A stretch of 64,000 bases of DNA, taken from the NCBI RefSeq assembly GCF_003790525.1, contig NZ_CP033635.1. One strand, written 5' to 3'. This document shows positions 24,390-50,695 of the stretch, piece by piece. The stretch is from Escherichia coli (GTDB lineage Bacteria; Pseudomonadota; Gammaproteobacteria; Enterobacterales; Enterobacteriaceae). How positions within the stretch are numbered: position 1 is the first letter of the stretch; the number at the start of each line of letters is the position of its first letter. A program made the position numbers and the translations under genes. The notes under the pieces are model-generated. The model saw only the letters and a list, made by a program, of their open reading frames with translations, was not told where the DNA came from and did not search any database.

Positions 24390-25010
24390 GTGGAAATTTA
24401 CGAGAACGAAAACGACCAGGTTGAAGCGGTTAAACGCTTTTTTGCTGAAAATGGCAAAGCACTGGCTGTTGGGGTGATTTTGGGCGTTGGCGCACTGATT
24501 GGCTGGCGCTACTGGAACAGCCATCAGGTTGATTCTGCACGCTCCGCTTCTCTTGCCTATCAAAATGCGGTTACCGCAGTGAGCGAAGGCAAACCGGATA
24601 GCATCCCGGCGGCGGAAAAATTTGCTGCTGAAAATAAAAATACTTATGGTGCGCTGGCTTCTTTGGAACTTGCGCAGCAATTTGTTGACAAAAATGAACT
24701 AGAGAAAGCTGCCGCCCAGTTACAACAGGGGCTGGCAGACACGAGCGATGAAAATCTCAAAGCCGTGATAAATCTGCGTCTTGCTCGCGTTCAGGTACAG
24801 CTCAAGCAGGCTGATGCCGCGCTGAAAACCCTTGATACCATCAAAGGTGAAGGGTGGGCTGCCATTGTTGCCGACCTGCGTGGTGAAGCATTGCTGAGCA
24901 AAGGTGATAAGCAAGGTGCGCGTAGTGCATGGGAAGCAGGCGTGAAAAGCGATGTTACCCCGGCACTGAGCGAAATGATGCAGATGAAAATTAATAATTT
25001 GTCCATCTGA
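24390..25010 (+). CDS. yfgM: YfgM, membrane-anchored TPR-like protein
   Basis: 206-aa ORF MEIYENENDQVEAVKRFFAENGKALAVGVILG, GTG start. Confidence 0.88.
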   Translation: MEIYENENDQVEAVKRFFAENGKALAVGVILGVGALIGWRYWNSHQVDSARSASLAYQNAVTAVSEGKPDSIPAAEKFAAENKNTYGALASLELAQQFVDKNELEKAAAQLQQGLADTSDENLKAVINLRLARVQVQLKQADAALKTLDTIKGEGWAAIVADLRGEALLSKGDKQGARSAWEAGVKSDVTPALSEMMQMKINNLSI

Positions 25011-25020
25011 GAGGGACCCG

Positions 25021-26199
25021 ATGCAATTGCGTAAATTACTGCTGCCAGGACTGCTTTCCGTTACCCTTTTAAGCGGCTGTTCGCTGTTTAACAGCGAAGA
25101 AGATGTGGTAAAGATGTCCCCATTGCCAACCGTTGAAAACCAGTTTACGCCGTCTACTGCGTGGAGCACTTCCGTTGGTAGCGGCATTGGCAACTTCTAT
25201 TCCAATCTTCATCCGGCACTGGCGGACAACGTTGTCTATGCTGCGGACCGCGCTGGTTTAGTAAAAGCGCTGAATGCGGATGACGGCAAAGAAATCTGGT
25301 CTGTCAACCTGGCCGAGAAAGATGGCTGGTTCTCTAAAGATCCTGCATTACTTTCTGGCGGCGTGACCGTGTCTGGTGGGCATGTCTACATTGGCACCGA
25401 AAAGGCGCAGGTTTACGCGCTGAATACCAGCGATGGTACTGTGGCATGGCAAACTAAAGTCGCGGGTGAAGCACTTTCGCGCCCGGTGGTCAGCGACGGT
25501 CTGGTGTTAATCCACACCAGTAACGGTCAGTTACAAGCGCTGAACGAAGCTGACGGCGCTGTCAAATGGACAGTTAACCTCGATATGCCTTCGCTCTCTT
25601 TGCGTGGCGAGTCTGCGCCGGCAACGGCTTTTGGTGCGGCCGTCGTGGGTGGCGATAATGGTCGCGTCAGCGCAGTGCTGATGGAACAGGGCCAGATGAT
25701 TTGGCAGCAGCGTATTTCCCAGGCGACCGGTTCTACCGAAATTGACCGTCTGAGCGATGTTGACACGACACCCGTCGTTGTTAACGGCGTTGTTTTCGCG
25801 CTGGCCTATAATGGTAACCTGACGGCGCTTGATCTGCGCAGTGGTCAGATTATGTGGAAACGCGAACTGGGTTCGGTGAATGATTTCATCGTCGACGGCA
25901 ATCGCATCTATCTGGTCGATCAAAATGACCGGGTGATGGCGTTGACCATTGATGGCGGCGTTACGCTGTGGACACAAAGCGATCTGCTGCATCGCCTGCT
26001 GACTTCTCCGGTGCTGTATAATGGCAACCTGGTGGTAGGTGACAGTGAAGGTTATCTGCACTGGATTAACGTCGAAGATGGTCGTTTCGTTGCCCAGCAA
26101 AAAGTTGATAGTTCCGGTTTCCAGACTGAACCGGTTGCCGCTGACGGCAAACTGCTGATCCAGGCAAAAGACGGAACCGTGTACTCTATTACACGTTAA
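25021..26199 (+). CDS. bamB: Outer membrane assembly lipoprotein BamB
   Basis: 392-aa ORF with lipobox LLSGC and PQQ-like beta-propeller repeats. Confidence 0.93.
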   Translation: MQLRKLLLPGLLSVTLLSGCSLFNSEEDVVKMSPLPTVENQFTPSTAWSTSVGSGIGNFYSNLHPALADNVVYAADRAGLVKALNADDGKEIWSVNLAEKDGWFSKDPALLSGGVTVSGGHVYIGTEKAQVYALNTSDGTVAWQTKVAGEALSRPVVSDGLVLIHTSNGQLQALNEADGAVKWTVNLDMPSLSLRGESAPATAFGAAVVGGDNGRVSAVLMEQGQMIWQQRISQATGSTEIDRLSDVDTTPVVVNGVVFALAYNGNLTALDLRSGQIMWKRELGSVNDFIVDGNRIYLVDQNDRVMALTIDGGVTLWTQSDLLHRLLTSPVLYNGNLVVGDSEGYLHWINVEDGRFVAQQKVDSSGFQTEPVAADGKLLIQAKDGTVYSITR

Positions 26200-26316
26200 T
26201 CGTCTCTGTCGTTCACTTTGAAAACGGCTCCTGGACAGGGGCCGTTTTCCTGTTTTTAACAACGACACGAATATAGCGTGCGTTGTCTGATGATTTATAA
26301 AAATGAGGCTTTAAAC

Positions 26317-27789
26317 ATGGTACCTGTGGTCGCGCTTGTCGGGCGCCCTAACGTAGGAAAATCCACGTTATTTAACCGTCTAACTCGCACCCGAGATGCG
26401 CTGGTTGCGGATTTCCCGGGTCTGACTCGTGACCGTAAGTACGGTCGTGCGGAAATTGAAGGCCGTGAGTTTATCTGCATTGATACCGGCGGGATTGATG
26501 GCACAGAAGACGGTGTAGAAACCCGCATGGCGGAACAGTCGCTGCTGGCGATTGAAGAAGCGGACGTCGTACTGTTTATGGTGGATGCGCGCGCGGGCCT
26601 GATGCCGGCGGATGAAGCGATTGCTAAACATCTGCGCTCCCGTGAAAAACCGACCTTCCTGGTGGCAAACAAAACTGACGGTCTGGATCCCGATCAGGCA
26701 GTGGTTGATTTCTACTCGCTTGGTTTAGGTGAAATCTACCCGATCGCCGCGTCTCACGGTCGTGGCGTATTAAGTCTGCTGGAGCACGTGCTGCTGCCGT
26801 GGATGGAAGATCTCGCACCGCAAGAAGAAGTCGACGAAGACGCCGAATACTGGGCGCAATTTGAAGCGGAAGAGAACGGCGAAGAAGAAGAGGAAGACGA
26901 CTTCGACCCGCAAAGTCTGCCGATCAAACTGGCGATTGTGGGTCGTCCGAACGTCGGTAAGTCTACACTCACTAACCGTATTCTTGGTGAAGAGCGCGTT
27001 GTTGTTTACGACATGCCTGGCACGACGCGTGACAGTATCTACATTCCAATGGAACGCGACGGACGTGAGTATGTGCTCATTGACACCGCTGGCGTACGTA
27101 AACGCGGCAAAATCACCGATGCGGTAGAGAAGTTCTCGGTAATCAAAACGTTGCAGGCCATTGAAGATGCCAACGTGGTGATGTTGGTGATTGATGCGCG
27201 TGAAGGTATTTCCGATCAGGATCTCTCCTTGCTGGGCTTTATTCTCAATAGTGGGCGCTCACTTGTGATTGTAGTGAACAAGTGGGACGGCCTGAGCCAG
27301 GAAGTGAAAGAGCAGGTGAAAGAGACGCTGGACTTCCGTCTGGGCTTTATCGATTTTGCTCGTGTGCACTTTATCTCTGCCTTGCACGGCAGTGGTGTTG
27401 GTAACTTGTTTGAATCAGTACGTGAAGCGTATGACAGCTCCACCCGTCGTGTGGGGACCTCTATGCTGACGCGCATCATGACGATGGCTGTTGAAGATCA
27501 CCAACCGCCGCTGGTACGCGGTCGTCGAGTGAAGCTGAAATATGCCCACGCCGGGGGTTATAACCCGCCGATTGTGGTGATTCACGGTAATCAGGTGAAA
27601 GACCTGCCTGATTCCTACAAGCGTTACCTGATGAACTACTTCCGCAAATCGCTGGACGTAATGGGATCGCCGATTCGTATTCAGTTCAAAGAAGGGGAAA
27701 ACCCGTATGCGAACAAGCGTAATACCCTGACGCCGACTCAGATGCGCAAGCGTAAGCGTCTGATGAAGCACATCAAGAAAAGTAAGTAA
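26317..27789 (+). CDS. der: GTPase Der (EngA)
   Basis: Start at [16 protein letters not shown] (ATG 26317), 490 aa, two GTPase domains (GRPNVGKS twice). Confidence 0.93.
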
Positions 27790-27851
27790 TCACTTATCTG
27801 GTTTCCCTTTCCACACGGAGAGGGAAACCGAATAACACGCGAGGAGTATTT

Positions 27852-28067
27852 ATGGCACTCAACTGTCCAACCTGCAAAACCCCTCTCGAACGCAATGGCG
27901 GGACTGCTCACTGTGCAACTTGTGCCAAAGATTTCACCATTCAGGCTCTTTGTCCTGACTGCCACCAGCCATTGCAGGTATTAAAAGCATGCGGTGCGGT
28001 GGATTATTTCTGCCAATATGGGCACGGTTTAATTTCTAAAACACGCGTTGAATTTGTTATTGTGTAA
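27852..28067 (+). CDS. yfgJ: YfgJ, small zinc-ribbon protein
   Basis: 71-aa ORF with two CxxC pairs (CPTC, CATC, CPDC). Confidence 0.8.
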   Translation: MALNCPTCKTPLERNGGTAHCATCAKDFTIQALCPDCHQPLQVLKACGAVDYFCQYGHGLISKTRVEFVIV

Positions 28068-28276
28068 TATCATTTAAATATATGATTTTATCATTCATAT
28101 TTATAATATGGATGATTATGCCATTTTTGTATTAGTTGAATTACTAATATGAGTGGAAAAAATCACTTATTTAAAAAATAATGATATATTTATCCTTTCT
28201 GGCATGCCTTTCTGAATAATCAGGGATACAATATTAAAGCTTATTTTTGACTTTATCATTGTCACAGGAAAAGTGC

Positions 28277-30451
28277 ATGCTGCGATGGACACGCTGTATT
28301 ATGCTAACATTTATCTCTGGGGCTGCTTTTGCGGCTCCAGAGATAAATGTTGAGCATAAAGAATCATTACCTGATTTAGGTAGTCAGGCCGCACAACAAG
28401 AAGAACAAACCAACAAGGGGAAATCGCTAAAAGAGCGTGGTGCCGATTACGTCATTAACTCCGCTACGCAAGGGTTTGAAAACCTGACACCCGAGGCGCT
28501 GGAGTCCCAGGCCAGAAGCTATCTGCAAAGTCAAATTACCTCTACGACACAATCTTATATTGAGGATACACTCTCCCCCTACGGTAAGGTTCGAACGAAT
28601 CTTTCTCTTGGCCAGGGCGGCGATCTGGATGGCAGTTCCATCGACTATTTTGTTCCCTGGTATGATAATCAAACTACTGTTTATTTCAGCCAATTTTCTG
28701 CACAACGAAAAGAAGATCGTACGATCGGGAATATTGGGCTTGGTGTAAGACATAATTTTGATAAATGGTTGTTGGGTGGAAATATATTTTATGATTATGA
28801 TTTTACCCGTGGGCATCGCCGTTTAGGTTTAGGTGTCGAAGCGTGGACTGATTATTTAAAATTCTCTGGCAACTATTATCACCCGCTTTCTGACTGGAAA
28901 GACTCCGAAGATTTCGATTTTTATGAGGAGCGTCCTGCGCGCGGCTGGGATATTCGCGCCGAAGCCTGGCTTCCCGCTTATCCGCAGCTTGGTGGTAAAA
29001 TTGTTTTCGAACAGTATTACGGTAATGAAGTCGCGCTTTTTGGCACTGATAATCTGGAGAAAGATCCCTTCGCTGTCACGCTGGGTGTGAAATACCAGCC
29101 CGTTCCGCTCATTGCTGTCGGTACAGATTTCAAAGCTGGCACTGGCGATAATACCGATCTTTCTGTTAACGCAACGCTTAATTATCAGTTTGGCGTCCCG
29201 CTCAAAGACCAGCTTGATCCTGACAAAGTGAGCGCTGCTCACTCGCTTATGGGCAGCCGTCATGACTTTGTTGAACGTAACAACTTTATTGTTCTGGAAT
29301 ACAAAGAAAAAGATCCCCTCGACGTCACTTTGTGGCTGAAAGCCGACGCCACGAATGAACATCCCGAGTGCGTGATTAAAGATACGCCTGAAGAAGCTAT
29401 CGGGCTGGAAAAATGTAAATGGACCATTAACGCGCTCATTAACCATCACTACAAAATCGTCGCTGCCTCCTGGCAGGCGAAAAACAATGCTGCACGTACG
29501 CTGGTGATGCCGGTTATCAAAGAAAACACGCTTACCGAAGGTAACAACAACCACTGGAATCTGGTGCTGCCTGCCTGGCAGTACAGTTCTGATAAAGCCG
29601 AACAAGAAAAACTCAATACCTGGCGGGTTCGTCTGGCGCTGGAAGATGAAAAAGGTAATCGACAGAATTCCGGCGTGGTGGAAATCACCGTTCAGCAGGA
29701 TCGCAAAATTGAGCTCATCGTTAACAACATCGCCGATGTACCAGATGAGAACAATCACAGTCATGAAGCCAGCGCACAGGCCGATGGTGTAGATGGTGTG
29801 GTGATGGATCTCGATATTACTGATAGCTTTGGCGACAACACTGACCGCAACGGTAATGTCTTGCCGCAGGATAATCTCAACCCGCAGTTGTTTGACGCCA
29901 ACGATAAAAAAGTGACGCTGACGAATAAACCCTGCACTACCGAGACTCCCTGTGTCTTTATCGCCAAACAAGATAAAGAAAAGGGGACCGTTACGCTCTC
30001 CAGTACATTGCCTGGCACCTTCCGTTGGAAGGCGAAAGCCGCTCCCTATGATGACAGTAACTATGTTGACGTAACGTTCCTGGGTTCTGACATCGGCGGG
30101 CTGAATGCCTTTATCTATCGTGTTGGTGCGGCTAAGCCCGTGAATCTTATCGGCAATAAAGAGCCGTTGCCTCTCAATAGCAGCTATCGCTTTGTGTTGT
30201 GGCGTGACGCTAACAAAGACGGCGTGTTCCAGCTATCAGAGAAATTCACTGAAGAGGAGATGAAACAGTATGACTATCAGTGGGAATTCACGGGACATAG
30301 CGTGAATGGCAATACCGGTGCGCAAGCCAATACCACTAACGCCGATATAGAGATCCCGGCAACGAACAAGGACGCGGCAACGAAGTTTAGTGCCCAGGTA
30401 ACCGATGGCGTGCAGGGATACGGTTTGCAGGTCAATTACAGCAAGAAATAG
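28277..30451 (+). CDS. sinH: Intimin/invasin-like inverse autotransporter (SinH-like)
   Basis: Signal peptide MLRWTRCIMLTFISGAAFA; intimin-type beta-barrel motifs (KWLLGGNIFYDYDF, ERPARGWDIRAEAWLPAYPQLGG); AGGA RBS before ATG 28277. Confidence 0.78.
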   Translation: MLRWTRCIMLTFISGAAFAAPEINVEHKESLPDLGSQAAQQEEQTNKGKSLKERGADYVINSATQGFENLTPEALESQARSYLQSQITSTTQSYIEDTLSPYGKVRTNLSLGQGGDLDGSSIDYFVPWYDNQTTVYFSQFSAQRKEDRTIGNIGLGVRHNFDKWLLGGNIFYDYDFTRGHRRLGLGVEAWTDYLKFSGNYYHPLSDWKDSEDFDFYEERPARGWDIRAEAWLPAYPQLGGKIVFEQYYGNEVALFGTDNLEKDPFAVTLGVKYQPVPLIAVGTDFKAGTGDNTDLSVNATLNYQFGVPLKDQLDPDKVSAAHSLMGSRHDFVERNNFIVLEYKEKDPLDVTLWLKADATNEHPECVIKDTPEEAIGLEKCKWTINALINHHYKIVAASWQAKNNAARTLVMPVIKENTLTEGNNNHWNLVLPAWQYSSDKAEQEKLNTWRVRLALEDEKGNRQNSGVVEITVQQDRKIELIVNNIADVPDENNHSHEASAQADGVDGVVMDLDITDSFGDNTDRNGNVLPQDNLNPQLFDANDKKVTLTNKPCTTETPCVFIAKQDKEKGTVTLSSTLPGTFRWKAKAAPYDDSNYVDVTFLGSDIGGLNAFIYRVGAAKPVNLIGNKEPLPLNSSYRFVLWRDANKDGVFQLSEKFTEEEMKQYDYQWEFTGHSVNGNTGAQANTTNADIEIPATNKDAATKFSAQVTDGVQGYGLQVNYSKK

Positions 30452-30506
30452 GATCAGCGCCATGGCTGATCGGGCCACCGCTGAATGTTAACCAAGGAGA
30501 GTGTTT

Positions 30507-31499
30507 ATGAAACCTCATATGAAACGTGGCCTGACAAGAGTCGCGCTGGCACTGATGCTGGCTGGATACTGTGCCGTGCCAGCCGCTATGGCGGAAGATG
30601 CCGCCTGGGTAGCCAGTGGGACGACCGCTGAATTCGAAGGGACCATACCCTGGCTTTATCGCGAGGGTGGGAATGCCACGATTAACTCGGATGATGCGGA
30701 TCACATCAAAGTAACGTCTGATGGTAAAGGTACTCGTCCTTCAGGTAGCGAGACGGATAAACGCCTTTACTCAGGAGATACCATCACGTTGGGGTGGGAT
30801 ATCGGCGATACCGAAGGGGATATCGACGATGGTCCAGACGGTATTGATGCGAAAACGACAGCCACTATCAAATGGTACAGTTACAGCGATAATGCGGGTG
30901 GCGGTAAAACGGAGCTGACCGCAGCGGCAGGCAAGACGAGTTATAAACTCACTGATGACGAACGTGGGCGTTATATCGGTGTTGAAATCCAGCCCATCAC
31001 CCAGACCGGTAATCCTTTCCAGGGAACATCGCTGACTCTGCTGGATATTTCAACGGCCAGCGGTGGCGGCAGCGATACGGATAATGTTGATCCTGGCCCG
31101 GTTGTGAACCAGAACCTGAAAGTTGCCATCTTCGAGAAAGGCACCAGTACCAACCTTATCGGTGGTAATACAGCCATTGCGCTTAACAAAACGTATGTGG
31201 CCAAACTGTACTCGGATGAAAACCAGAATGGTAAGTACGATGCGGGTACGGATGTGGACGTTACCGCTAACTACGACTTTGCGTGGGTCTTTAACGGTAA
31301 CAGTAAACAACTTGCGGCGGCGGGCGGTATTGCCAACGCCAGCTTCGATAACAATGACATTGTTATTCCGCAAACTAACGAACAAGCAAGAACCAGCCTT
31401 AACGGTAGTGACCGTAATGGTAAGACCGGCCTTGCAATCCCGGCAAACGGCGACGGCGTTCAGGGCTATACGCTGTCTATCATTTACAAACACCACTAA
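30507..31499 (+). CDS. sinI: Secreted protein, SinI-like
   Basis: Signal peptide MKPHMKRGLTRVALALMLAGYCAVPAAMA; C-terminal DGVQGY motif shared with the sinH-like product. Confidence 0.55.
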   Translation: MKPHMKRGLTRVALALMLAGYCAVPAAMAEDAAWVASGTTAEFEGTIPWLYREGGNATINSDDADHIKVTSDGKGTRPSGSETDKRLYSGDTITLGWDIGDTEGDIDDGPDGIDAKTTATIKWYSYSDNAGGGKTELTAAAGKTSYKLTDDERGRYIGVEIQPITQTGNPFQGTSLTLLDISTASGGGSDTDNVDPGPVVNQNLKVAIFEKGTSTNLIGGNTAIALNKTYVAKLYSDENQNGKYDAGTDVDVTANYDFAWVFNGNSKQLAAAGGIANASFDNNDIVIPQTNEQARTSLNGSDRNGKTGLAIPANGDGVQGYTLSIIYKHH

Positions 31500-31608
31500 T
31501 GCGCACAACAGCATTCCCGTATGGGAATGCTGTTTTCCGCCTGTTTTGCTTAGCGACGCGTTAAGCAAAACGGGTTGACGTTTTGTTTATCATGCTGGAG
31601 TTTTCTAC

Positions 31609-34600
31609 ATGTCGGTATGTCTGAAACCAGGAAAAATCATTGTGCTTCTGGGCATGTTGGCAGCCTTTATGCTGTCTGACTTTGCACGGGCAGGAGTGGA
31701 ATGGCAGACATATCCTGGTTCTACAGGCGAGTTTAACGGTACAGTTCCTATTGCCGATAGCGCTAGCGTACCCGTTTATCAGGGAAGCGTTCAGCTTGAT
31801 CCTGCTGCATCTCATGATGTGGCGTTTTCTGCTAAACCGAATGAATTTAGCGTTGACGATGACGCTGCTAACCTGATAGTCGCTAATCCTCAGGACAGTG
31901 AAGGCGACCAGTTTTCCACACCACCTGCGCTGCGCTGGGAAAACCAGACGCCGCCGACCGTCAGTCTGGTGTGGGCGGATGCCGCCACGCCGGATACGCC
32001 GCTCAACCCGCAGCCCATCGCCAACCGCAGCTTTTGCGCGCAAGGTCTGGCCGGGCGTTCGCTGGTGGCCTGGCCGCAGATAGATACACAACAAACCATT
32101 CCACTGCTTTACCTGCTGACCTCGACCGGTTATCCCTATGAGGGGACGGTGGCGCTGGCTGAACAGAAAGTGACGCTGAACATCGCGCCCGCACAGGGCG
32201 ATTTAATTTCGGTGAGCGCCAGTGGTTATAACGAAACGATCGCGGCGGCAAAAACCACCGTTGGTGGCACTATCACGCTGACCGTCACCACCAAAGATTG
32301 TCAGGGCAACGTCGCGGGTAATATTCCGTTTATTATCAAACGTAAAGATGCCCAAAACCGTCAGGGCGCGGTGAATAATACCGCGCCGGTGGTGCTGGGG
32401 AGTACCGAGTTAACGACGACGGCAACCGAGTATCGTGGCACATCGGATGCCAACGGTACGGCAACCATCACGGTGACCCAACCTAACGGCCCCGGCGTCA
32501 AAACGCCGCTGGTGGCGAGTATTTCCGGCATTGCGCAAACCAGCGAAACGGCGGTGATTTTTACCGTACTTACCAGCCCGGACGTGGCGCAGGCCACGAT
32601 GTGGGGCCATATGGCGGAAACGGTTGAGGCACACGGCTACACGTTCAGCAGGCCAAAACTGGCGGCGGAAGTCAGCAATGAAAATGCCACGGTCGTCGAT
32701 CACAACGAAACCTGGTCCACTTTCACCTGGAGCGGGGCAGACAGCCATTGCACCGTGCTGCCGGGCATGCGCCATTTCGGCGCACTGGCGACGGTGATTC
32801 CCTCCACGGTACAGACTGTCCTTGGCTGGCCGATGCAGGATGATTATTACTGGACATCGCTGGCGGGCACTACCGGGCAGCACCATGCAGCGGATGTCTC
32901 TAACCGTGCTGAAGCGCAAAAGCCGGATAGCACCACGTTTCTTGTAAGCTGCGTGGACAAACCCGCGCCTGACGTCGAACCGAAAATCGTCCTTACGCCA
33001 GAAAACTATGATGATACGGCACAGGCGATGAAAGCGAAGGTGGGTGAGGATGCCACGATGCGTCTGACGATCACCGACAATAAAAACAACGATCAACCGC
33101 TGGCGTATTATTACTTCTCGCTGCATCTGGATGACGGCGTTAACCGTAAGAATCAAACCGACTCCGCCTGGGAAGCCCATCCGGTGCAGATTACTGGCGG
33201 CAGTAATTTTCGCCAGGTCGACGCACATACCTATGAAGGCATGACCGACGCCAACGGCCAGGCTTCGCTCACCCTGAGCCAGCCCGGCGGCGCGGGGGTG
33301 AAAACCCATATCACGGCGAAAATGCGCAGCGATTTTAACGCCACGGATGCCAAAGATGTGATTTTTACCGTAATCACCAGCCCGGACAGCGACAAAGCGC
33401 GGATGTGGGGCCATATGCGCGGCATTATTGAGTCCGGCAGTCTGTATAAACGCCCGTTGCTGGCGGATGAAACCGAGCATGAACTGGGAACAGTGCGGGA
33501 AAACAACGAAGACTGGGCGTTGTACGATCAAAACACCAGTATGCAGGCGGAATGCGGGGTGGGTCATATACCGCGTCAGAGCTCACTGGAAAGCCTGTTT
33601 TCAGCCCATCCCGGTAACGCGATTGGCACTGAGTATGGCTGGCCTACCGCACAACAGAGCTACCTAAGCGCGGTGGAGCAAGAAACGCATTCATCGGTGA
33701 ATCTGGGGAACGGGAGCGTCGACAGCTATTCCGGCTTTAAGCAGAATTACCTCTCCTGTTCGGGTAATGAGATGGTAGCGAATGTTGAAGTCAGCACCGA
33801 TCATGATGTGTCTGTTGGCACCCAAGCGCAAGCCAAAGTGGGTGACACCATCGTAATGACCGTGCGTACGATTAACGCGCTAAATAATTCCCCGGTACCC
33901 TTTAGCGCATTCACCATTACCAAAGGTATGGGATATAACCGAGCGGGACAGGTGAGCGGGTTTGATGACCCGAGTAGCGGCTCAATCACGATGGATAACT
34001 CGCAATATGGTACATCACAGCCATCGATGGTTTATGCGGGAACAACCGATGTCCGGGGCGTGGCGACGGTCGAGATTAAGCAACCACAGGGCGTCGGGCT
34101 AAAAACGGTGCTGAGCGTAACACCGGTAAATTCCTACCTGCCGAATACCGTTAACTACAGCGTTATTTTTACTACCCCAACCAGCCCGGACGTTTCCGGC
34201 GCGCAGATGTGGGGCCATATGGATGAAACGATTACCGTTGATTCATCAACCTTTACCCGGCCTAGGCTGGCGGCGGAAATCGCCAGCCCGGACGGAACCC
34301 TGACTGAAAATAACGAAATCTGGGCGCGCGTGAGCCAGGCCAATACGTCCAGTACCAGCAAAGGCGGCTGCGGCACCAATATGCTGCCGCGTCGCTCCCA
34401 GCTAAGCGCGTTGTATAGCGCCAACAGTGGTAATGCAGTGCAAACGACGCACGGCTGGCCAACGCAGCGTCAGCCCTACTGGAGCAGCTCTCCGGCGGAT
34501 GTGACGCCGCACTTTTTCACGATAGCGCTGAACGATGGCGCACAAGCTATCGGCGGCGATACGCCGGTTTACGTCAGTTGCCTGACGACGGCGAACAAAC

Positions 34601-37600
34601 CTGCCAGCAGCATTACGCTGGAGGTGGTTGATAAAGCGCAATGGAATGCCGGGAATAACGCGGCAACGCTGAAAAAAGGCGAAACGCTACAGGTTAAGGT
34701 GACGGTAAAAGATGCACAGGGCAACGCGTTAGCGGATATGCCATTTACCCTCAGTCGCGGTGATGGCTATACCCGTAGCGGCGAAAAACATATTGCCGGT
34801 AGCGGCGATGCGCTGGTGGCGCCGGTGGTGGTCAATGGCGGGCTGGCCGATGAAACAACGTTGAATGACACCGCAACGGTGTATACCGCCATGACCGGCA
34901 GTGACGGCAGCAAAATTCTTAATATTACCCGTCCGGATACCCACGGCACCAAAACGGCGCTGACGGCAACGCTTTACTCCGATGCGACGAAAAAAGACAG
35001 CCTGGACACGATCTTTACGGTGGTTACCAGCCCGGATAGCAGCCAGGCGAAAATGTGGGGGCATATGCCGGAAACGGTGACGGCTGAGGACGGTACGGTC
35101 TTTAAACGCCCGCGGTTACTGAAGGAACTGAGCAGTCAGACTGGGCGAACATCAACGCTTGAAGACAACGAAAACTGGGCGTTGTTTAACATTAATTATG
35201 CGAGCTCTTCCACGACGTATAGTGGCTGTGGAACCAACTATATTCCGACTCAGGCCGGTCTGACGTCACTGTTTGCTAATAATGCGGGCAACACCATGAA
35301 AACCGTGCAGGGCTGGCCGGTGGCAACGCGCTATTTGTCCAACACGTCCGACAATGGCAGCATGGAGCAGCGTAACTACAAGGCGGTCGATCTCAGCAAT
35401 GGCACGAGTGCGGCAGTGTCATCAACGGCGCTGCAACTGCTGACCTGTCAGACTACACCGGTAACCACGGTGAGCCAAATCCTGCTGGAAGCGGCAGATC
35501 CGGCGACGCTGGATACCACCTATAACGTGGTAAAAGCGAAAAAAGGCGAAGAATCCGTGGTGCGCGTCACCACCAAAGATGCACAAGGCAACCTGGTGGG
35601 CAATACGGCATTTATCCTGACGCGTGCCAACAGCGTGAGTCGGGCTAATGCATCAGCGACGATGAGCGTGGGCTCGTTGACGGTGACGGATGCCTGGGGC
35701 AATACGCGAAATAATTTCCAGTCGACAAGTGAAACCATTTACGGCGTGACCGGTGCCGACGGGTCAACGACATTGACCCTGAAACAGGATAACAGTACCG
35801 GGTTAAGAACCGATCTCACGGCAAAACTGGATACGTCCAGCAGCGTCAAGGCAACGCTACCGGTGGTCTTTACCGTCGTGACCAGCCCGGATTCGCCAAA
35901 AGCGAATTTTTGGGGACATATGGCCGAAACGGTGGCGGCCTCCGATGGTTCAGTCTATAAACGCCCACTGTTGCTGGCAGAGCTGGCCAACACTGGCGGG
36001 CGACAAATCAGTTCAGAGAACGGGGAAAGCTGGGTACGATTCACCTGGAATCAGTCGACAGATCCTTCTGTAAGCGGCTGCGGCGTTGCGTATATGCCAA
36101 CGTTGGCAGGCCTGCAAGCGTTGTATGACGCTAATAGTGGTAATGCAATGAGTACGGTACAGGGATGGCCGGTAAAAGCGACCTATCTCACCAATACCCC
36201 AAGTGACACGCAAACGGGGAGCCGTTACTACAATGTGGTGCAACTGGATTCTGGCGCAGCCTCGCAAATCACGACGAACACGGGTGTACTGCAAACCTGC
36301 CGTACAACGCCGTTGACGGCTGCCAGCCAGATTACGCTGGAGGCCGCGGATCCTGCGCAATTTGTCAGCATTGACAGCACGCTTAGCGCTGTCAAAGTGC
36401 AGAAAGGCGATAGCGTGCCGATCCGCATTTCGACTAAAGATGCGCAGGGCAATTTCGTCGGCAATACGCCGTTTGCCCTGAAACACGCGAACTCGATCAA
36501 TCGTCAAAATGTGTCGTCATCGCAGAAAGTGTCGGTCACGACGGAGGTGGGTACGACGGTGGATACCAGTGCAACAACCACCCTGTATGGCGTAACCGGG
36601 CCAGACGGAACCACCACGATGACGCTCCGACAGGATGCGTCCACCGGGTTAAGAACCGACTTTTATGCCCTGTTGAACGATACCGGCGTGTCGTCGGACA
36701 CCTTGCCGGTGATCTTTACCGTCATCACCAGCCCGGATACGCCGCTGGCGGCCAACTGGGGCCATATGGCGGAAACCTTTACCAGTAGCGAAGGCGTCAC
36801 CTTCAAGCGGCCTTCCCTCAAAGCTGAACTCTCTGGCGGTACGGCCATAACGGTCAATAATGAAGTCTGGTCGCGCCTGACAGCGGCGGAGAAAGTGGAT
36901 GCCAGCAAGGCCGGGTGTGATGAGACGTATCAACCGCTGGTGAATGACATGCAGGGGTTGTATGCGGATTACCCTAACGGCCAGTTAGGATCGGTGCTCG
37001 GCTTGCCGACGTCTGCCGGGTATTGGTGGGCCTACGACATGATGATGGTTTCTGGCAACTGGACTAATCAGGCATTTTCACCTGTTAATGGTCAGTTGAT
37101 GCAGGCATCGTCCAGCTATACGGCGATCGTGATGTGTCTGGTAGAACCACATACGGAAGCAGCCACAATAGAGCTTACTTCAACGGCGCAGGACGCAGCA
37201 AAATCGGCCAGTAATGGTGGACGACCGAGCGCCGTAGCGAAGAAAGGCGAGACGATTCCGTTGACGGTGACCGTGCGTGATAGCGCCGGGAACCCGATGC
37301 CATATGCTGAGTTTACCCTCACGCGTGAAACGACGCTGGATCGCTCGAAAGCAACCGTTAACACGAGTGCGGACGACCTTACCGTAACGGCATTGGTACC
37401 CGCGAATACAAATAGTGTGTTGGCAGCAAGTGGAGCAAAACTGATCGGCACGACGGGCAGCGATGGCAAAGCGACCTTTGAGGTGAGTCAGAATGCGACG
37501 ACCGGGCTGGCGACGCCGTTAACCGTGACGCTGGCGCGTGATACGACGAAAGCCGCCACGCTGGATGTTATCTATACGGTGATCACCAGCCCGGATTCGC

Positions 37601-39684
37601 CGAGTGCGAAATTCTGGGGGCATATGCCGGACACCTTTACCAGCTCGACGGGCGTCACCTTCAAACGACCGCTGCTGAAAGCAGAAACCAGCTCAGGCTC
37701 ATCGATTAGCTCTAACGGCGAAGTTTGGTCATATATGAGCAACGCGCAAAATTTAACATCGACAGATTGCCCGCTCGAAAATCAACCGCGCAGTAATGAG
37801 CTGTTGGATTTGTATAGTGATCACCCGAACGGCACGCTAATGACCGACCTGGGGTTACCCGTATATGCAGGTAACTGGTGGGCCTATGATATGGTCATGC
37901 TGAGTGGAACGTCGTGGACTTATCAACTCATCAGCCTGAAAGACGGAACCATTACGCAGAAGGGGACAACCAGTGCGTTGATGCTTTGCCTGGCACAGCC
38001 GCATCCGGCCGGCGTCAGCGTAACATTGACGTCATCCGCACAGGATGACGCCAGAACCACCAGCAATGGCGGCCGTCCCAGCGCGTCAGCGAAAAAAGGT
38101 AACTCAATACCGATTGTGGTAACGGTAAAAGATCGTGATGGCAACCCGTTGGCGGGCGAAGCGGTGACGCTCAAACGTGATTCAGCGTTGAGCCGTTCAG
38201 GAACAATCGTGGGGACGCCAGCGAATGAAATAAAGTTGACGGAACTGACGCCCGTGTCGGCGACATTCCCGCTGGTTTCAAATGGTACACAATGGCTTGG
38301 TTTCACCGGTAGCGATGGTACGGCGACATTCAATGTTGAACAGCCTGATACTGTCGGCCTGGCAATCCCCTTTAACGCCATCCTGGCCCGTGACACGGCA
38401 AAGGTATCTACTCTGGATCTGATTTTTACCGTCCTCACCAGCCCGGATGCCGCATTAGCAACTTACTGGGGCCATATGCCGGATACCGTCACGGCGGAAA
38501 ACGGTGCTGTCTTTGAGCGCCCTAAACTGTGGAAAGAGCTGCCGTCGACATCCGGGGTAAGTCAGATAACGAATAGCAATGAAGCCTGGCCAGTGTTTAA
38601 CGCAACGCAGAGGGCTGACAGCAATCTCAGCCCTTGTGAAGCGGCGCGTCGACCATTGAGCGATGATTTAGAAGCGCTCTATACACGTTATCCAGGAAAC
38701 ACGATTACCGCGCAAATTGGCTGGCCTACGCAGTATGCATGGTGGGCGGTGGATAACTGGGAAGGGGGCAGTAATCCGCAGGCCGTCAGCCTGGTAAATG
38801 GTTCGAGAGGCCAATATAATCCCGCTCATCAGGCCTGCCTGGTTAACCCGCGTGCGAGCGTTTCCAGCGTCACGCTGACATCAACGGCGCTGGATGACGC
38901 CACACAGGCGGCGACGGTGAAAAAAGGCGACGCCGCGCCCATTGTCGTTACCGTAAAAGACAGCGCCGGGAAGCCGGTGCCGAATATCGCTTTTATCCTA
39001 AAACGCGGTGAGGCCGTGCCGCGTAACAGCGGGGCGACGCTGTATGGCGATGTGGATGCGATGGACGATTTGACTGTGCAACCTTCATCCGGTGCGGCAG
39101 TCACGTTGGCTGACAGTGGAAATACCATCGACGGAGTCACGGGAGCGGACGGTACGGCAAGCTTTACCGTTCGTCAGGATAATACGCCAGGATATAAAAC
39201 GCCGTTGACGGTGACGCTGACGGATAACGCCACCATAACGGCGACGCTGGACACGATTTTCACCGTGCCGACCAGCCCGAATGTCGCCACGGCGTATTTC
39301 TGGGGTCATATGGCGGATACCGCCACGGTAAGTGGCAAGACGCTGCATCGCCCGCTATTAAAATCGGAGTTGCCGTCAGGCGCTACCGCAGCAGCAACGC
39401 CTGATGTAAATAATGAAACCTGGGCACTGGCGCATGTTATGGATTCCTCTAAATGGGATGTCGCGCAGCAGTGTGGCAGTATGAATAACGTGCCGAGCAG
39501 TGCCGAATTACAAACATTACACTCCGGCTTTAGCACATTGGGATGGCCGTCCTCGATAAGCTTCCCGTATTTATCTACTGATAAGGCTGGGTCGTTCTAT
39601 TGTGGTGTTGATGAAGGCTCTGGCAGTCTCAACTGTGGCATTCAGCCTGCGAAAACGCCGGGGTTTGCAACCTGCTTCCAGTAA
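31609..39684 (+). CDS. ratA: Giant repeat-containing surface protein, RatA-like (2691 aa)
   Basis: Single ORF with signal peptide and nine ~270-aa repeats each carrying VIFTVxTSPD...WGHM; position next to sinI matches Salmonella ratA. Confidence 0.7.
32280..39684 (+). repeat. Nine tandem in-frame coding repeats of about 0.80-0.86 kb inside the ratA-like gene
   Basis: ACCAGCCCGGA(C/T) recurs at about 32572, 33380, 34183, 35028, 35885, 36731, 37585, 38443, 39271. Confidence 0.8.
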
Positions 39685-39737
39685 CCTTATCCACCTTGTC
39701 AATATGAGGTTCCGAAAGCCTGATACGCAACGCGCTA

Positions 39738-41135
<1,398 letters not shown>

Positions 41136-41266
41136 TTATTCAGTCGATAGTAACCCGCCCTCCGGGGATAGCAAGCATTTTTTGCAAAAAGGGGTAGATG
41201 CAATCGGTTACGCTCTGTATAATGCCGCGGCAATATTTATTAACCACTCTGGTCGAGATATTGCCC

Positions 41267-42733
41267 ATGCTACGTATCGCTAAAGAAGCTCTGACGTTTG
41301 ACGACGTTCTCCTCGTTCCTGCTCATTCTACCGTTCTGCCGAATACTGCTGACCTCAGCACCCAGCTGACGAAAACTATTCGTCTGAATATCCCTATGCT
41401 TTCCGCAGCAATGGATACCGTAACGGAAGCGCGCCTGGCTATTGCTCTGGCTCAGGAAGGCGGTATCGGCTTTATCCACAAAAACATGTCCATTGAACGC
41501 CAGGCAGAAGAAGTTCGCCGTGTGAAAAAACACGAATCTGGCGTGGTAACTGATCCGCAGACCGTGCTGCCGACAACCACCCTGCGTGAAGTGAAAGAAC
41601 TGACCGAGCGTAACGGCTTTGCGGGCTACCCGGTGGTTACCGAAGAAAACGAACTGGTCGGCATCATCACCGGTCGTGACGTGCGTTTTGTGACCGATCT
41701 GAATCAACCGGTTAGCGTTTACATGACGCCGAAAGAGCGTCTGGTAACCGTGCGTGAAGGCGAAGCCCGTGAAGTGGTGCTGGCAAAAATGCACGAAAAA
41801 CGCGTTGAAAAGGCGCTGGTGGTTGATGACGAATTCCACCTGATCGGCATGATCACTGTGAAGGACTTCCAGAAAGCGGAACGTAAACCGAACGCGTGTA
41901 AAGACGAACAAGGCCGTCTGCGTGTAGGTGCAGCGGTTGGCGCGGGTGCGGGTAACGAAGAGCGTGTTGATGCGCTGGTTGCCGCAGGCGTTGACGTTCT
42001 GCTGATCGACTCCTCTCACGGTCACTCTGAAGGTGTTCTGCAGCGTATCCGTGAAACTCGCGCTAAATATCCTGACCTGCAAATCATCGGCGGCAACGTG
42101 GCAACAGCAGCAGGTGCCCGCGCGCTGGCAGAAGCCGGTTGCAGTGCCGTTAAAGTGGGTATCGGCCCTGGTTCTATTTGTACTACCCGCATTGTTACTG
42201 GCGTCGGTGTTCCGCAGATCACCGCCGTTGCTGACGCAGTAGAAGCCCTGGAAGGCACCGGAATTCCGGTTATCGCTGACGGTGGTATTCGTTTCTCCGG
42301 CGACATCGCCAAAGCTATCGCCGCTGGCGCAAGCGCGGTAATGGTGGGTTCCATGCTGGCAGGTACTGAAGAATCTCCGGGTGAAATTGAACTCTACCAG
42401 GGCCGTTCTTACAAATCTTACCGTGGTATGGGTTCCCTGGGCGCGATGTCCAAAGGTTCTTCTGACCGTTACTTCCAGAGCGACAACGCTGCCGACAAAC
42501 TGGTGCCGGAAGGTATCGAAGGTCGCGTGGCCTATAAAGGTCGCCTGAAAGAGATCATTCACCAGCAGATGGGCGGCCTGCGCTCCTGTATGGGCCTGAC
42601 CGGCTGTGGTACTATCGACGAACTGCGTACTAAAGCGGAGTTTGTACGTATCAGCGGTGCGGGCATTCAGGAAAGCCACGTTCACGACGTGACCATTACT
42701 AAAGAGTCCCCGAACTACCGTCTGGGCTCCTGA
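41267..42733 (+). CDS. guaB: IMP dehydrogenase
   Basis: Start at [21 protein letters not shown] (ATG 41267), 488 aa. Confidence 0.95.
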
Positions 42734-42801
42734 TTCTCTTCGCCCGACTTCATGTCGGGCGATTTATATTATCTGTTTCACTTGCCTCGGAATAAGCGTC
42801 A

Positions 42802-44379
42802 ATGACGGAAAACATTCATAAGCATAGCATCCTCATTCTGGACTTCGGTTCCCAGTATACTCAACTGGTTGCGCGCCGCGTGCGTGAGCTGGGCGTTTAC
42901 TGCGAACTGTGGGCGTGGGATGTGACAGAAGCACAAATTCGTGACTTCAATCCAAGCGGCATTATTCTTTCCGGCGGCCCGGAAAGCACCACCGAAGAAA
43001 ACAGCCCGCGTGCGCCGCAGTATGTCTTTGAAGCAGGCGTACCGGTATTCGGCGTTTGCTATGGCATGCAGACCATGGCGATGCAGTTGGGTGGTCACGT
43101 TGAAGCCTCTAACGAACGTGAATTTGGCTACGCGCAGGTTGAAGTCGTAAACGACAGCGCACTAGTTCGCGGTATCGAAGATGCGCTGACCGCAGACGGT
43201 AAACCTCTGCTCGATGTCTGGATGAGCCACGGCGATAAAGTTACCGCTATCCCGTCCGACTTCGTCACCGTAGCCAGCACCGAAAGCTGCCCGTTTGCCA
43301 TTATGGCTAACGAAGAAAAACGCTTCTATGGCGTACAGTTCCACCCGGAAGTGACTCACACCCGCCAGGGTATGCGCATGCTGGAGCGTTTTGTGCGTGA
43401 TATCTGCCAGTGTGAAGCCCTGTGGACGCCAGCGAAAATTATCGACGATGCTGTAGCCCGTATCCGCGAGCAGGTAGGCGACGATAAAGTCATCCTCGGC
43501 CTCTCTGGTGGCGTGGATTCCTCCGTGACCGCAATGCTGCTGCACCGCGCTATCGGTAAAAATCTGACTTGCGTATTCGTCGATAACGGCCTGCTGCGTC
43601 TCAACGAAGCAGAGCAGGTTCTGGATATGTTTGGCGATCACTTTGGTCTGAACATTGTTCACGTTCCGGCAGAAGATCGCTTCCTGTCAGCGTTGGCCGG
43701 CGAAAACGATCCGGAAGCAAAACGTAAAATCATCGGGCGCGTTTTCGTTGAAGTATTCGATGAAGAAGCACTGAAACTGGAAGACGTGAAGTGGCTGGCG
43801 CAGGGCACTATCTACCCTGACGTTATTGAATCTGCCGCATCTGCAACCGGTAAAGCACACGTCATCAAATCTCACCACAACGTGGGCGGCCTGCCGAAAG
43901 AGATGAAGATGGGCCTGGTTGAACCGCTGAAAGAGCTGTTCAAAGACGAAGTGCGTAAGATTGGTCTGGAGCTGGGCCTGCCGTACGACATGCTGTACCG
44001 TCACCCGTTCCCGGGACCAGGCCTTGGCGTTCGTGTTCTGGGTGAAGTGAAGAAAGAGTATTGTGACCTGCTGCGCCGTGCTGACGCCATCTTCATTGAA
44101 GAACTGCGTAAAGCGGACCTGTACGACAAAGTCAGCCAGGCGTTCACCGTCTTCCTGCCGGTACGTTCCGTTGGCGTAATGGGCGATGGTCGTAAGTATG
44201 ACTGGGTTGTCTCTCTGCGTGCTGTCGAAACCATCGACTTTATGACCGCACACTGGGCGCATCTGCCGTACGATTTCCTCGGTCGCGTTTCCAACCGCAT
44301 TATCAATGAAGTGAACGGTATTTCCCGCGTGGTGTATGACATCAGCGGCAAGCCGCCAGCTACCATTGAGTGGGAATGA
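42802..44379 (+). CDS. guaA: GMP synthase
   Basis: 525-aa [38 protein letters not shown]. Confidence 0.95.
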
Positions 44380-44425
44380 TTAACAGCTAACTCATAGCAA
44401 CTCATTCCTATTCAGACACTAATTT

Positions 44426-44458
44426 AACCCTCTGTTTTTACAGAGGGTTTTTGTTTTT
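44426..44458 (+). terminator. Intrinsic terminator of guaA
   Basis: aaccctctg-ttttt-acagagggtt followed by tttgttttt. Confidence 0.6.
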
Positions 44459-44514
44459 ATGTATTCATTTCTATTCACTCTACACCATATTTTTTGGCGG
44501 TACAGGTGACGGTA

Positions 44515-44529
44515 TTACCTTAAAGGTAT
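44515..44529. promoter_or_regulatory. Operator-like palindrome TTACCttaaaGGTAt upstream of integrase
   Basis: Member of the recurring TTACC-N5-GGTAA motif family. Confidence 0.4.
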
Positions 44530-44571
44530 ACTCTCATACCGTCATGAAAATGGTTTCTATACGGGTGAATT

Positions 44572-45822
44572 GTGCTTACCGATACAAAATTAAAGAACCT
44601 CAAGCCACAGGACAAACTGTACAAAGTTTCCGATCGTGACGGGCTGTATGTAGCTGTGCTTACGTCAGGTACGGTCTCGTTTCGCTATGACTACCGTATC
44701 AACGGTCGCCGCGAAACACTGGTAATCGGGCAGTATGGGCGTGACGGTATCAGCCTGGCAGAAGCGCGAGAAGAACTGATTGCTGCAAAGAAGCTGCTTA
44801 AAGCAGGCCAGTCGCCGGCTGCGGCTAAACGTGACGGTATCAAAAAGATTCGTGGTGCCGAGACGTTTGCGGTACATACCGACAGTTATATGAAACACGT
44901 CATCCTGGCTGAAAGTACCCGCGCAATGAAGCAGGCAGTGATCGACCGTGACATACTTCCTGTTCTTGGCAACAAAATGATGACTGAAATTACCACATCG
45001 ATGGTTCGTGATTTGTGTGACCGGATTGTCGAACGCGGTGGTCGGGCAACAGCAGTACAGGCCAGGGAGATCATTAGCAGCGTATACCGTCACGCCAATG
45101 ACCGTGGTCATGGTTTGTTTAATCCTGCGGCTGACATTAAACCTTCGTCTATCGCCATATTTAAACCACGAGAGCGAACACTGACACCAGAAGAAATTGG
45201 TCTGTTCTTCCGCACGCTGGATGCCATTGGTGCTATGGGCACTATGAAAATGGCTTTAAAGCTGGTGCTTATCACTATGGTTCGTAAAGGCGAATTCACC
45301 AATGCAACGTGGGACGAAATAGATTTTAAAAAATGGACATGGACAATTCCTTCAGACCGCATGAAGGGAAGCCGGGCGCACGTTATTTACCTGCCAAAAC
45401 AGGCACAGGATATATTGGTTGGGTTGCAGATGTGCGCTGGTGGAAGTGAATATCTGGTTCCTGGTCGTTACAATTTCCGGAAGCCATTATCTAATGCCGC
45501 ACTGAACTCTCTGATCGACAGAACGGTGAAAATAATAAATGAAGATGGTGAGCATATTCAGGGCTTCACCGTACACGATATGCGCCGTACAGCCAGTACG
45601 TTGTTGCATGAGGCTGGTTATCCTTCAGACTGGATTGAAAAGGCTCTGGCACATGAGCAGAAAGGTGTGCGCGCCGTATATAACAAAGCGGAATACGCCA
45701 GACAGCGCGCCTACATGTTGCAGCAGTGGGCCGATATGATTGATTCCTGGATTAACGGGGAGCATACGGATCTAATTCCGTTCTCCCCGTCGAAGTTTGA
45801 GAAGTGGATGGCGGGGGAATAA
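44572..45822 (+). CDS. Tyrosine-type phage integrase (P4-like family)
   Basis: 416-aa ORF MLTDTKLKNLKPQDKLYKVSDRDGLYVAV..., C-terminal HDMRRTASTLL and catalytic-region motifs; GTG start. Confidence 0.85.
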   Translation: MLTDTKLKNLKPQDKLYKVSDRDGLYVAVLTSGTVSFRYDYRINGRRETLVIGQYGRDGISLAEAREELIAAKKLLKAGQSPAAAKRDGIKKIRGAETFAVHTDSYMKHVILAESTRAMKQAVIDRDILPVLGNKMMTEITTSMVRDLCDRIVERGGRATAVQAREIISSVYRHANDRGHGLFNPAADIKPSSIAIFKPRERTLTPEEIGLFFRTLDAIGAMGTMKMALKLVLITMVRKGEFTNATWDEIDFKKWTWTIPSDRMKGSRAHVIYLPKQAQDILVGLQMCAGGSEYLVPGRYNFRKPLSNAALNSLIDRTVKIINEDGEHIQGFTVHDMRRTASTLLHEAGYPSDWIEKALAHEQKGVRAVYNKAEYARQRAYMLQQWADMIDSWINGEHTDLIPFSPSKFEKWMAGE

Positions 45823-45825
45823 CGT

Positions 45826-46020
45826 TTAATAGTTCTGCTGATTTTCTTCCATCTCTGCTTCTGCTGCCAGTGATTCAATTTTGTTTTCGAATATTGCTGA
45901 CAGTGTTGCAAATTCAGCATCAGTGACAGCGGGAATTGGAACAAACCTGATCCCGCTGTGTGCAAGCATGTTTGCAGTTTCAAGGCATTTTCTTAAATCT
46001 GCTGGTGATGCCCTGTTCAT
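45826..46020 (-). CDS. Hypothetical small acidic protein
   Basis: Internal Met of ORF 45826..46140 positioned right after methylase stop; weak support. Confidence 0.2.
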   Translation of the reverse strand: MNRASPADLRKCLETANMLAHSGIRFVPIPAVTDAEFATLSAIFENKIESLAAEAEMEENQQNY

Positions 46021-47317: not shown

Positions 47318-47366
47318 AAATACCTCTCTTGGTTGCAGTGCGGCGCGCGTGGCGCCGCGGTGGTGG

Positions 47367-49377: not shown

Positions 49378-49526
49378 ATCTCGTTATCGTTGGCCACATC
49401 GCGAGCTTCTTTGCTGACGAAAGCCCACTTAATGCCTTCCTGTAAGGTGCGGAACTTCCAGCTCATGAATCCGCATGCAGTAACGCAGTACCAACCGTTG
49501 ATGATTTTCCACTGCATAACTTGTTA

Positions 49527-49603: not shown

Positions 49604-49670
49604 CGTTAGGTAATCGAATAGGCAATAAAAAAGCCGCCATAAGGCGGCTTACTTACTGAAAAATATGGTT

Positions 49671-50684: not shown

Positions 50685-50695
50685 CATATCTATTC

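Follow-up and report, generated by a model that had tools for sequence, protein, structure and literature searches.

The question raised by the locus studied here is which genes occupy the space between yfgJ and xseA in an Escherichia coli chromosome and how they came to lie there. The analysis was performed on a stretch of 64,000 nucleotides (the window) from contig NZ_CP033635.1 (NCBI RefSeq assembly GCF_003790525.1), in which yfgJ (+ strand) ends at position 28,067, xseA (- strand, 39,738-41,105) ends at 39,738, and three + strand genes lie between them according to the open reading frame (ORF) map of the window. In E. coli K-12, der-yfgJ and xseA-guaB are present as well, but there xseA adjoins yfgJ directly, with a 4-bp overlap and no sequence in between. 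A preliminary description, made from the letters of the window, had assigned positions 28,068-39,737 to an adhesin island composed of sinH, sinI and ratA, resembling the Salmonella CS54 island and missing from K-12. Its coordinates are exact in gene terms, enclosing three intact ORFs, and its statement about K-12 is borne out. Taken as a whole, the evidence makes it very likely that the locus is the E. coli counterpart of the CS54 adhesin locus known from Salmonella (described in E. coli as the ila, or intimin-like adhesin, cluster), that it probably forms an operon, and that it is an old occupant of its site whose alleles have been moved by recombination. Its features are listed below, with coordinates referring to the window.

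27,790-27,851, + strand: der-yfgJ spacer; the variable block begins here on the left, with a collapse of homology to K-12
27,852-28,067, + strand: yfgJ, zinc-ribbon protein of 71 aa, island-linked allele (65% aa identity to K-12 YfgJ)
28,068-28,276, + strand: AT-rich spacer 5' of sinH (209 bp, 24% GC), presumed promoter/regulatory region
28,277-30,451, + strand: sinH, type Ve inverse autotransporter of 724 aa (NF033423, Pfam IAT_beta)
30,507-31,499, + strand: sinI, putative Sec-exported partner protein of 330 aa (NF040711)
31,609-39,684, + strand: gene for a RatA-like giant protein of 2,691 aa, 8,076-bp ORF (PRK15316)
39,714-39,749, + strand: stem-loop followed by a U-run, probable operon terminator, overlapping the xseA stop codon
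39,738-39,920, - strand: final ~60 codons of xseA, divergent from K-12; here the variable block ends on the right

Gene products and probable operon layout

The product of sinH was identified with the equivalog model NF033423 (1,482.7 bits against a cut-off of 999, covering profile positions 1-730 of 730). It shows the sequence features of a type Ve autotransporter, namely a signal peptide at residues 1-20 (read from the sequence as MLRWTRCIMLTFISGAAFA, followed by AP), a barrel at residues ~63-343 (Pfam IAT_beta, PF11924, at 63-336; E = 3.8e-105) and a passenger of ~380 aa (residues 344-724) that is C-terminal to the barrel. Residues 101-343 matched the solved barrels of invasin (4E1T; E = 2.5e-72) and intimin (4E1S; E = 1e-63). 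The intimin model NF033627, by comparison, returned 244.4 bits, from the barrel region only, against a cut-off of 1,400. SinH was described as a barrel with three immunoglobulin (Ig)-like domains in an E. coli vaccine study, and other E. coli alleles have been reported to be surface-localised and to act as protective vaccine antigens in mice. The sequence AGGAAA is located 7 nt before the sinH ATG.

SinI was identified with NF040711 (372.3 bits against a cut-off of 165, profile positions 1-299 of 299). It is composed of a predicted signal peptide (...AVPAAMA, followed by ED), an N-terminal motif in common with the Rat proteins, a body with beta-sandwich structure and, at its C-terminus, a domain paralogous to the tip domain of SinH, with ~300 aa in the mature protein. 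The paralogy was detected as an alignment of SinI residues 204-327 with SinH residues 609-721 (31% identity, E = 2e-10). The AlphaFold2 model of SinI (mean predicted local distance difference test score, pLDDT, 85.7) consists for the most part of beta strands; when compared with the PDB by Foldseek, it gave nothing at E <= 0.001 and only weak matches to tandem Ig and fibronectin type III folds, and a sequence-profile search against the PDB returned no matches. The signal peptide itself (window 30,507-30,600, residues 1-30) is conserved far beyond the usual, with 'ALAL..AGYC' present in at least 90% of 88 homologues, and its conserved Cys lies outside any canonical lipobox.

The giant protein was assigned to PRK15316 (NF011844; 5,562.4 bits against a cut-off of 3,870, profile positions 1-2683 of 2683). 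A predicted signal peptide (residues 1-28, ...DFARA, followed by GVE) precedes an N-domain of 190 aa (residues 29-218), and the body is built from nine modules of ~275 aa each, in which Pfam domains BIg21 and InvE_AD alternate and which are 23-44% identical to one another in pairs. Tandem Repeats Finder reported no DNA-level arrays in ratA. The scores obtained with the Salmonella models were below the respective cut-offs (RatA, NF011843: 2,064 against 3,700; RatB, NF011842: 2,254 against 4,079). The preliminary description, whose identification of an intimin-like inverse autotransporter (SinH), of SinI and of a giant Rat repeat protein agrees with the NCBIfam cut-offs passed by all three products, was therefore too specific in the name 'ratA': the gene encodes a giant Rat repeat protein that is RatA-like (PRK15316) and, by the same cut-offs, an orthologue of neither RatA nor RatB. 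Neither SinI nor the RatA-like protein has a barrel of its own. The locus is intact in this strain, all three ORFs being full length relative to the curated profiles, and 12.7 kb around it are 100% identical to E. coli SMS-3-5, with only 2 mismatches between the window and that strain across 24,500-43,200.

The three genes are encoded on the same strand, sinI starting 55 bp past the sinH stop codon and ratA 109 bp past sinI, and a scan for terminators detected no terminator-like site on the + strand in either gap. Past ratA, a hairpin with the stem GCCUGAUA/UAUCAGGC is followed by UUUUUU (minimum free energy of -23 kcal/mol for 39,685-39,760, z = -2.9); it was overlooked by the consensus terminator scan because its loop comprises 10 nt. 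A search of positions 26,000-45,000 against Rfam gave no match. Co-transcription of sinH and sinI has been stated in a review, and the layout of the window suggests that sinH, sinI and ratA together probably form a three-gene operon; we infer co-transcription of all three.

Distribution, age and exchange of alleles

Among 5,426 complete E. coli genomes, sinH (at least 80% coverage) was present in 1,740, i.e. about one third, and the 470-bp yfgJ/xseA junction of the K-12 type in 3,668; at most ~18 genomes belong to neither class, a figure obtained by combining two separate searches. The distribution over phylogroups is known from the vaccine study, which reported sinH prevalences of 100% in phylogroup F, 100% in G, 98% in B2 and 67% in D, and which also noted diverged alleles. 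When sorted by nucleotide identity to the window, sinH was at least 99% identical in 166 genomes, 95-99% in 16, 90-95% in 579 and 80-90% in 944.

In a few strains, the interval between der and yfgJ serves as a second, separate slot and contains a divergent mini-cluster (sinH2, sinI2 and a Rat gene for 760-784 aa). It was found in 8 of the 5,426 complete genomes, in addition to a partial match in Rb-50, and its SinH is 72% identical to that of the window at the aa level. The gene order in Rb-50 is der, an IS4 fragment, sinH2, sinI2, a short Rat gene (784 aa), yfgJ, sinH, sinI, ratA (2,693 aa) and xseA. Strain E2348/69, in which sinH lies upstream of yfgJ with an integrase by der, was considered as a counter-example to the placement of the island given in the preliminary description, or as a sign that the island is carried by an integrase, and was rejected, as the tandem clusters of Rb-50 reveal two slots; the placement is unaffected by the second one. 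In E2348/69, an element of ~8 kb with a tyrosine integrase is located directly downstream of der, and strain E69 has the same integrase (98.6% aa identity) at a distance of ~8 kb on the upstream side of yfgJ. Additional DNA of 2-5 kb separates der from yfgJ at several loci of Citrobacter and Superficieibacter.

To follow the locus beyond E. coli, one genome per species was scanned with the aid of three aligned SinH types from E. coli, and the neighbouring genes were then mapped; two SinH peptide patterns taken from the E. coli alignment missed Salmonella, which was recovered via SinI homologues. The order der-yfgJ-sinH-sinI-rat-xseA(-guaB) was found in E. whittamii, in Escherichia sp. E1V33 and MOD1-EC7003, at three Pseudocitrobacter, two Superficieibacter and five Citrobacter loci and in one further enterobacterium. 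A contig of E. albertii, too short to reach der or xseA, contains yfgJ-sinH-sinI-rat, and sinH has been reported in every E. albertii genome examined. S. enterica shows der-yfgJ-sinH-sinI-ratA-ratB, xseA following shdA by locus-tag order. The same order in at least five genera, together with the constant presence of sinH in E. albertii, argues for an old locus, as does the YfgJ protein linked to the island, which is closer to that of Salmonella (78.6% identity) than to that of K-12 (65%). Within the Escherichia/Salmonella/Citrobacter group, the cluster thus appears to have resided between yfgJ and xseA for a long time. Fragments of sinH, with 92% and 100% identity to the protein of E. coli, also occur on tiny contigs (2,014 bp and 426 bp) of a Collinsella sp. 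metagenome-assembled genome and of Rhizobium wenxiniae, where they probably represent assembly contamination.

Alignment of the flanks to K-12 placed the boundaries at ~27,790 and ~39,920, both edges being unsharp. On the left, identity to K-12 is 94-100% until ~27,790, at the der stop codon, and then 56-70%; on the right, it is 37-70% in the 3' end of xseA and returns to 99-100% by ~39,920-39,930. The edges are graded zones of divergence within yfgJ and xseA, without clean junctions, and the variable block measures ~12.1 kb, with the yfgJ allele and the final ~185 bp of xseA as parts of it. Since both of these diverge along with the three genes, the difference from K-12 is a replaced block (~12.1 kb against 470 bp) rather than a clean insertion. 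The 470 bp of the K-12 type, for their part, do not exceed 82% identity with any of the filled haplotypes that were sampled. A recent deletion as the origin of the K-12 haplotype was rejected, no close relative of it being found among these filled haplotypes, and the empty site appears to be a deeply diverged old allele instead of a clean pre-insertion site or a fresh deletion scar. Of the earlier wording that the island is 'inserted' between yfgJ and xseA, the absence from K-12 holds; insertion itself does not fit with the synteny of the filled order in at least five genera, with edges that lie within yfgJ and xseA and with a K-12 site that has itself diverged. The 'old or recombination-mediated acquisition' proposed in the same description is favoured by the synteny and the mosaic identity.

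The sequence immediately downstream of der forms a hairpin at 27,800-27,829 (GGTTTCCCT...AGGGAAACC), and K-12 carries a different but also hairpin-forming sequence at this site (GCCATTCCCTCT...AGAGGGAATGGC), so that structure is kept and sequence differs exactly at the point where the haplotypes diverge. The flanking genes are variable in other respects as well. For an E. coli core gene, xseA is unusually polymorphic (86-100% identity to K-12 and 83% to E2348/69 in the window, and 71% between K-12 and E2348/69 over one 400-bp stretch), and the XseA C-terminal tail comes in two types, 'GDGVVISEV' and 'EDGW(I/V)ESEV'; the tail in the window differs from that of K-12, 'EDGWIESEV'. In YfgJ, the C-terminal half (residues 32-70) is nearly invariant, whereas the N-terminal zinc-ribbon half is hypervariable, the 31 N-terminal residues of the K-12, SMS-type and E2348/69 forms being 23-32% identical to one another. 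Further upstream, rodZ (window 21,200-21,500) contains a patch with 79-88% identity to K-12 and with indels, amid sequence that is 97-100% identical.

The xseA-guaB flank is a mosaic of segments with 86-100% identity to K-12, as is typical of recombination, which suggests that alleles of the locus move by homologous recombination via the conserved der and xseA-guaB flanks, also between genera. Compared with Pseudocitrobacter vendiensis, the tract from ~29,000 to 32,000 (3' half of sinH, sinI and 5' part of ratA) is 93-95% identical at the nucleotide level, against 77-84% for bamB and der, and deeper into ratA the values drop to 78-90%. At the aa level, SinI and its P. vendiensis counterpart are 97% identical, as opposed to a nucleotide identity of 67.8% between sinI of the window and that of E. 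coli JNEC-KY177; over the same tract this strain, in which a second divergent allele is present, is 63-83% identical to the window. This pattern suggests a recent exchange of alleles between genera. It is possible, if somewhat doubtful, that a lineage which may or may not have had a cluster before recently took up the present allele from a Pseudocitrobacter-like source in another genus, with homologous recombination in der and xseA as the route, leaving a cluster that is effectively foreign DNA in an E. coli backbone. Such an import would account for the contrast between the tract and bamB/der, for the greater similarity of SinI to P. vendiensis than to JNEC-KY177 and for the mosaic xseA beside the island. 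The transfer could, however, equally have run from E. coli to Pseudocitrobacter; identity over most of ratA is only 78-87%, hence only part of the cluster is in common; and the YfgJ protein of P. vendiensis is unlike that of the window (68.6% aa identity overall, 45% over the N-terminal 31 aa). Import is compatible with an old locus whose alleles recombine, to which it would add a further step, and does not constitute a true alternative.

Proposed coupling of SinI and the RatA-like protein to SinH

The composition of the three proteins suggests how they may act. SinH would be exported by the Sec system and insert its 12-stranded barrel into the outer membrane, so as to display its C-terminal Ig-like passenger on the cell surface as an adhesin or invasin. 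SinI and the RatA-like protein, the latter a predicted rod of ~2,660 aa made of nine BIg21 plus adhesion-domain modules, would likewise be Sec-exported, pass through the periplasm as intermediates and reach, or stay at, the surface through SinH, as reported for ZirS and ZirU with ZirT. This dependence on SinH is inferred by analogy. SinI and the Rat proteins have been proposed as SinH substrates by analogy with ZirTS by Heinz et al. (2016), who grouped SinH explicitly with ZirT, and the Salmonella ZirT/ZirS/ZirU system (Gal-Mor 2008 and Prehna 2012, as summarised in PMC4943183) is similar in that the gene of an inverse autotransporter is followed by genes for barrel-less, Sec-exported beta-sandwich proteins resembling its passenger.

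A further link between the putative partners is the motif W-x5-6-T-x4-G-T-x-P, which begins 3-10 residues past the predicted cleavage site in SinI and the Rat proteins and lies in the N-domain of the RatA-like protein. All sampled loci have it, among them the second-slot cluster and that of Salmonella, in the latter in SinI, RatA and RatB alike. It is contained in 86 of 90 full-length SinI homologues, and the other four have close variants (three with G-S for G-T and one without the W). Few SinI residues reach a conservation of 90% or more, and the W, T, G, T and P of the motif belong to these. It is also present in nearly all intact Rat N-termini, counted with the results of a homologue search with the RatA N-domain, which gave mostly short fragments and served for motif counting only. 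In a profile-profile comparison, SinI and Rat proteins aligned over the N-terminal stretch alone (93.6% probability, E = 2e-7, signal peptide included), and in the SinI model the motif is predicted with a pLDDT of 79-92. Heinz et al. (2016) call the Rat N-termini 'highly divergent', and the motif goes unmentioned there.

As a tentative and, on balance, improbable extension, the motif may serve as a docking or export signal by which SinH recognises its partners. SinH would then be the hub of a modular adhesin complex with 'one barrel, several Ig-rod cargoes', in which SinI presents a second copy of the SinH tip domain, and the deep SinI allele classes (~42% identity) as well as the exchange between genera would reflect co-evolving sets of hub and cargo.

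It is about as unlikely that SinI and the RatA-like protein are independent of SinH, being periplasmic or exported by another route and merely co-located with it. Neither protein has a known secretion domain, the sources consulted contain no experimental link to SinH, and the SinI model lacks an informative fold match, all of which would fit with independence. Against it, the order sinH-sinI-rat is kept in every sampled genus, including two loci outside the der/xseA slot (Leminorella and Citrobacter R56), SinI carries the tip domain of SinH, the N-terminal motif is common to SinI and the Rat proteins, and the homologous ZirT/ZirS/ZirU proteins are reported to be secretion-coupled.

Several observations weigh against the interpretation of the locus as an old operon encoding a SinH-dependent adhesin system. 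Regarding transcription, a promoter scan yielded one weak sigma-70-like site (28,154-28,182), no more than was obtained with shuffled sequence. Regarding age, the K-12-type site is not demonstrably a deletion derivative, and either presence or absence of the cluster may be the original state in E. coli. Regarding coupling, secretion or anchoring of SinI and the RatA-like protein via SinH is a proposal by analogy with the reported Zir system; the SinI searches gave no sequence or fold match to ZirS or ZirU; and the common motif may simply be the first structural element of homologous N-domains instead of a targeting signal. The system also differs from ZirT/ZirS/ZirU in that one of the partners is a rod of 2,691 aa.

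Mobile-element signs and comparison with known systems

Read literally, the word 'inserted' would describe a mobile genomic island that was acquired recently by site-specific integration at a K-12-like yfgJ/xseA junction. The absence of the cluster from 3,668 of 5,426 genomes would fit with such an origin, as would the base composition, with 24% GC (0.239) in the spacer upstream of sinH, 47.6% in sinH, 51.8% in sinI and 55.5% in ratA, compared with 52% in the flanks and the window, and a review terms the locus 'horizontally acquired'. The GC bias of ratA may simply reflect its repeats rich in Thr, Ala, Ser and Gly. The ORF list of the window contains no integrase in or beside 28,068-39,737, no tRNA lies within 20 kb of the locus (the nearest is at 59,988), and the longest words common to both edges were 8-mers, the commonest length in shuffled controls, so that no direct repeats were found at the edges; the preliminary description had likewise seen no integrase, tRNA or direct repeats there. 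The usual attributes of a mobile or pathogenicity island (integrase, tRNA or attachment site, flanking direct repeats) are thus lacking. As the gene order and orientation are the same in at least five genera and both edges grade within yfgJ and xseA rather than break cleanly, recent integration is very improbable. The locus is not a classical mobile island, and no mobile-element machinery is involved. Even less credible is a decaying remnant with pseudogenes in this strain, given the complete coverage of all three profiles, although elsewhere E2348/69 has a Rat protein of 760 aa, E69 has a disrupted sinH, and, in a published survey, premature stop codons led to the removal of 26 of 334 sinH sequences.

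The integrase nearest to the locus, at 44,572-45,822 and the only one in the window, is part of a prophage that lies past xseA-guaB-guaA. This lambdoid prophage (44,382-64,000) starts directly after the guaA stop codon and is absent from this position in SMS-3-5 and K-12. It encodes the integrase as well as exonuclease VIII-like and DnaT-like proteins, and, by annotation in matching genomes, RecT, terminase and portal proteins; the tRNA-Arg(tct) at 59,988-60,064 (- strand) lies inside it. The loss of homology after guaA was considered as another variable island and rejected, being due to the absence of this prophage from SMS-3-5 and K-12.

The cluster is of practical relevance. SinH is being explored as an antigen for vaccines against extraintestinal pathogenic strains of E. 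coli (ExPEC), and sinH/ila mutants, including those with a deletion of ila, are attenuated in mouse urinary tract infection. The deep allele classes (82-100% identity of sinH across E. coli, and sinI down to ~68% at the nucleotide level) bear on vaccine coverage and on presence/absence screens, and so do the exchange with other genera and the neighbouring divergent sinH cluster.

When compared with intimin and invasin, SinH has the barrel domain and the inverse topology in common, with the passenger C-terminal to the barrel. It differs from them in the absence of Big_1 and LysM domains from the Pfam scan, and in its short passenger (~380 aa) with a tip domain that is also found in SinI.

The closest known system is the E. 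coli ila cluster, e.g. that of CFT073 (Shea et al. 2022, as cited in PMC12525524, PMC12928451 and PMC9937491). The sinH-sinI-ratA cluster has already been described under this name in ExPEC, NCBI holds curated models for all three proteins, and a comparative paper from 2026 lists 'GR 17 xseA..yfgJ' as a region common to ExPEC strains. The window contains the same three genes in the same order and in the same xseA..yfgJ position and represents one allele. It differs from other alleles in that its sinH is ~91% identical at the nucleotide level to the class of 579 genomes represented by E41-1 and Rb-50, and 82-86% identical to the class of 944 genomes that includes avian pathogenic and uropathogenic isolates, and for sinI, identity to the JNEC-KY177 gene is only 67.8%. 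The additions made by the present analysis are small and consist of the motif common to SinI and the Rat proteins, the SinH tip-domain paralogue in SinI and the second-slot cluster.

The CS54 island of Salmonella enterica, with the genes shdA-ratB-ratA-sinI-sinH (Kingsley et al. 2003, as described in papers citing it), occupies the same slot in the same orientation (der-yfgJ-sinH-sinI-rat...xseA), with locus tags running from STM2512 (xseA) to STM2517 (sinH), in agreement with the placement given in the preliminary description. SinH (74% aa identity) and YfgJ (78.6%) are similar in both. The five-gene content of CS54 is not found in the window, which lacks shdA and carries a single rat gene where CS54 has two; identity is as low as 42% for SinI, and that of the giant protein amounts to 42% with RatA and 48.7% with RatB. 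With 2,691 aa and nine modules, the RatA-like protein also differs in length from Salmonella RatA (1,865 aa) and RatB (2,435 aa). The locus is CS54-like in position, not in content.

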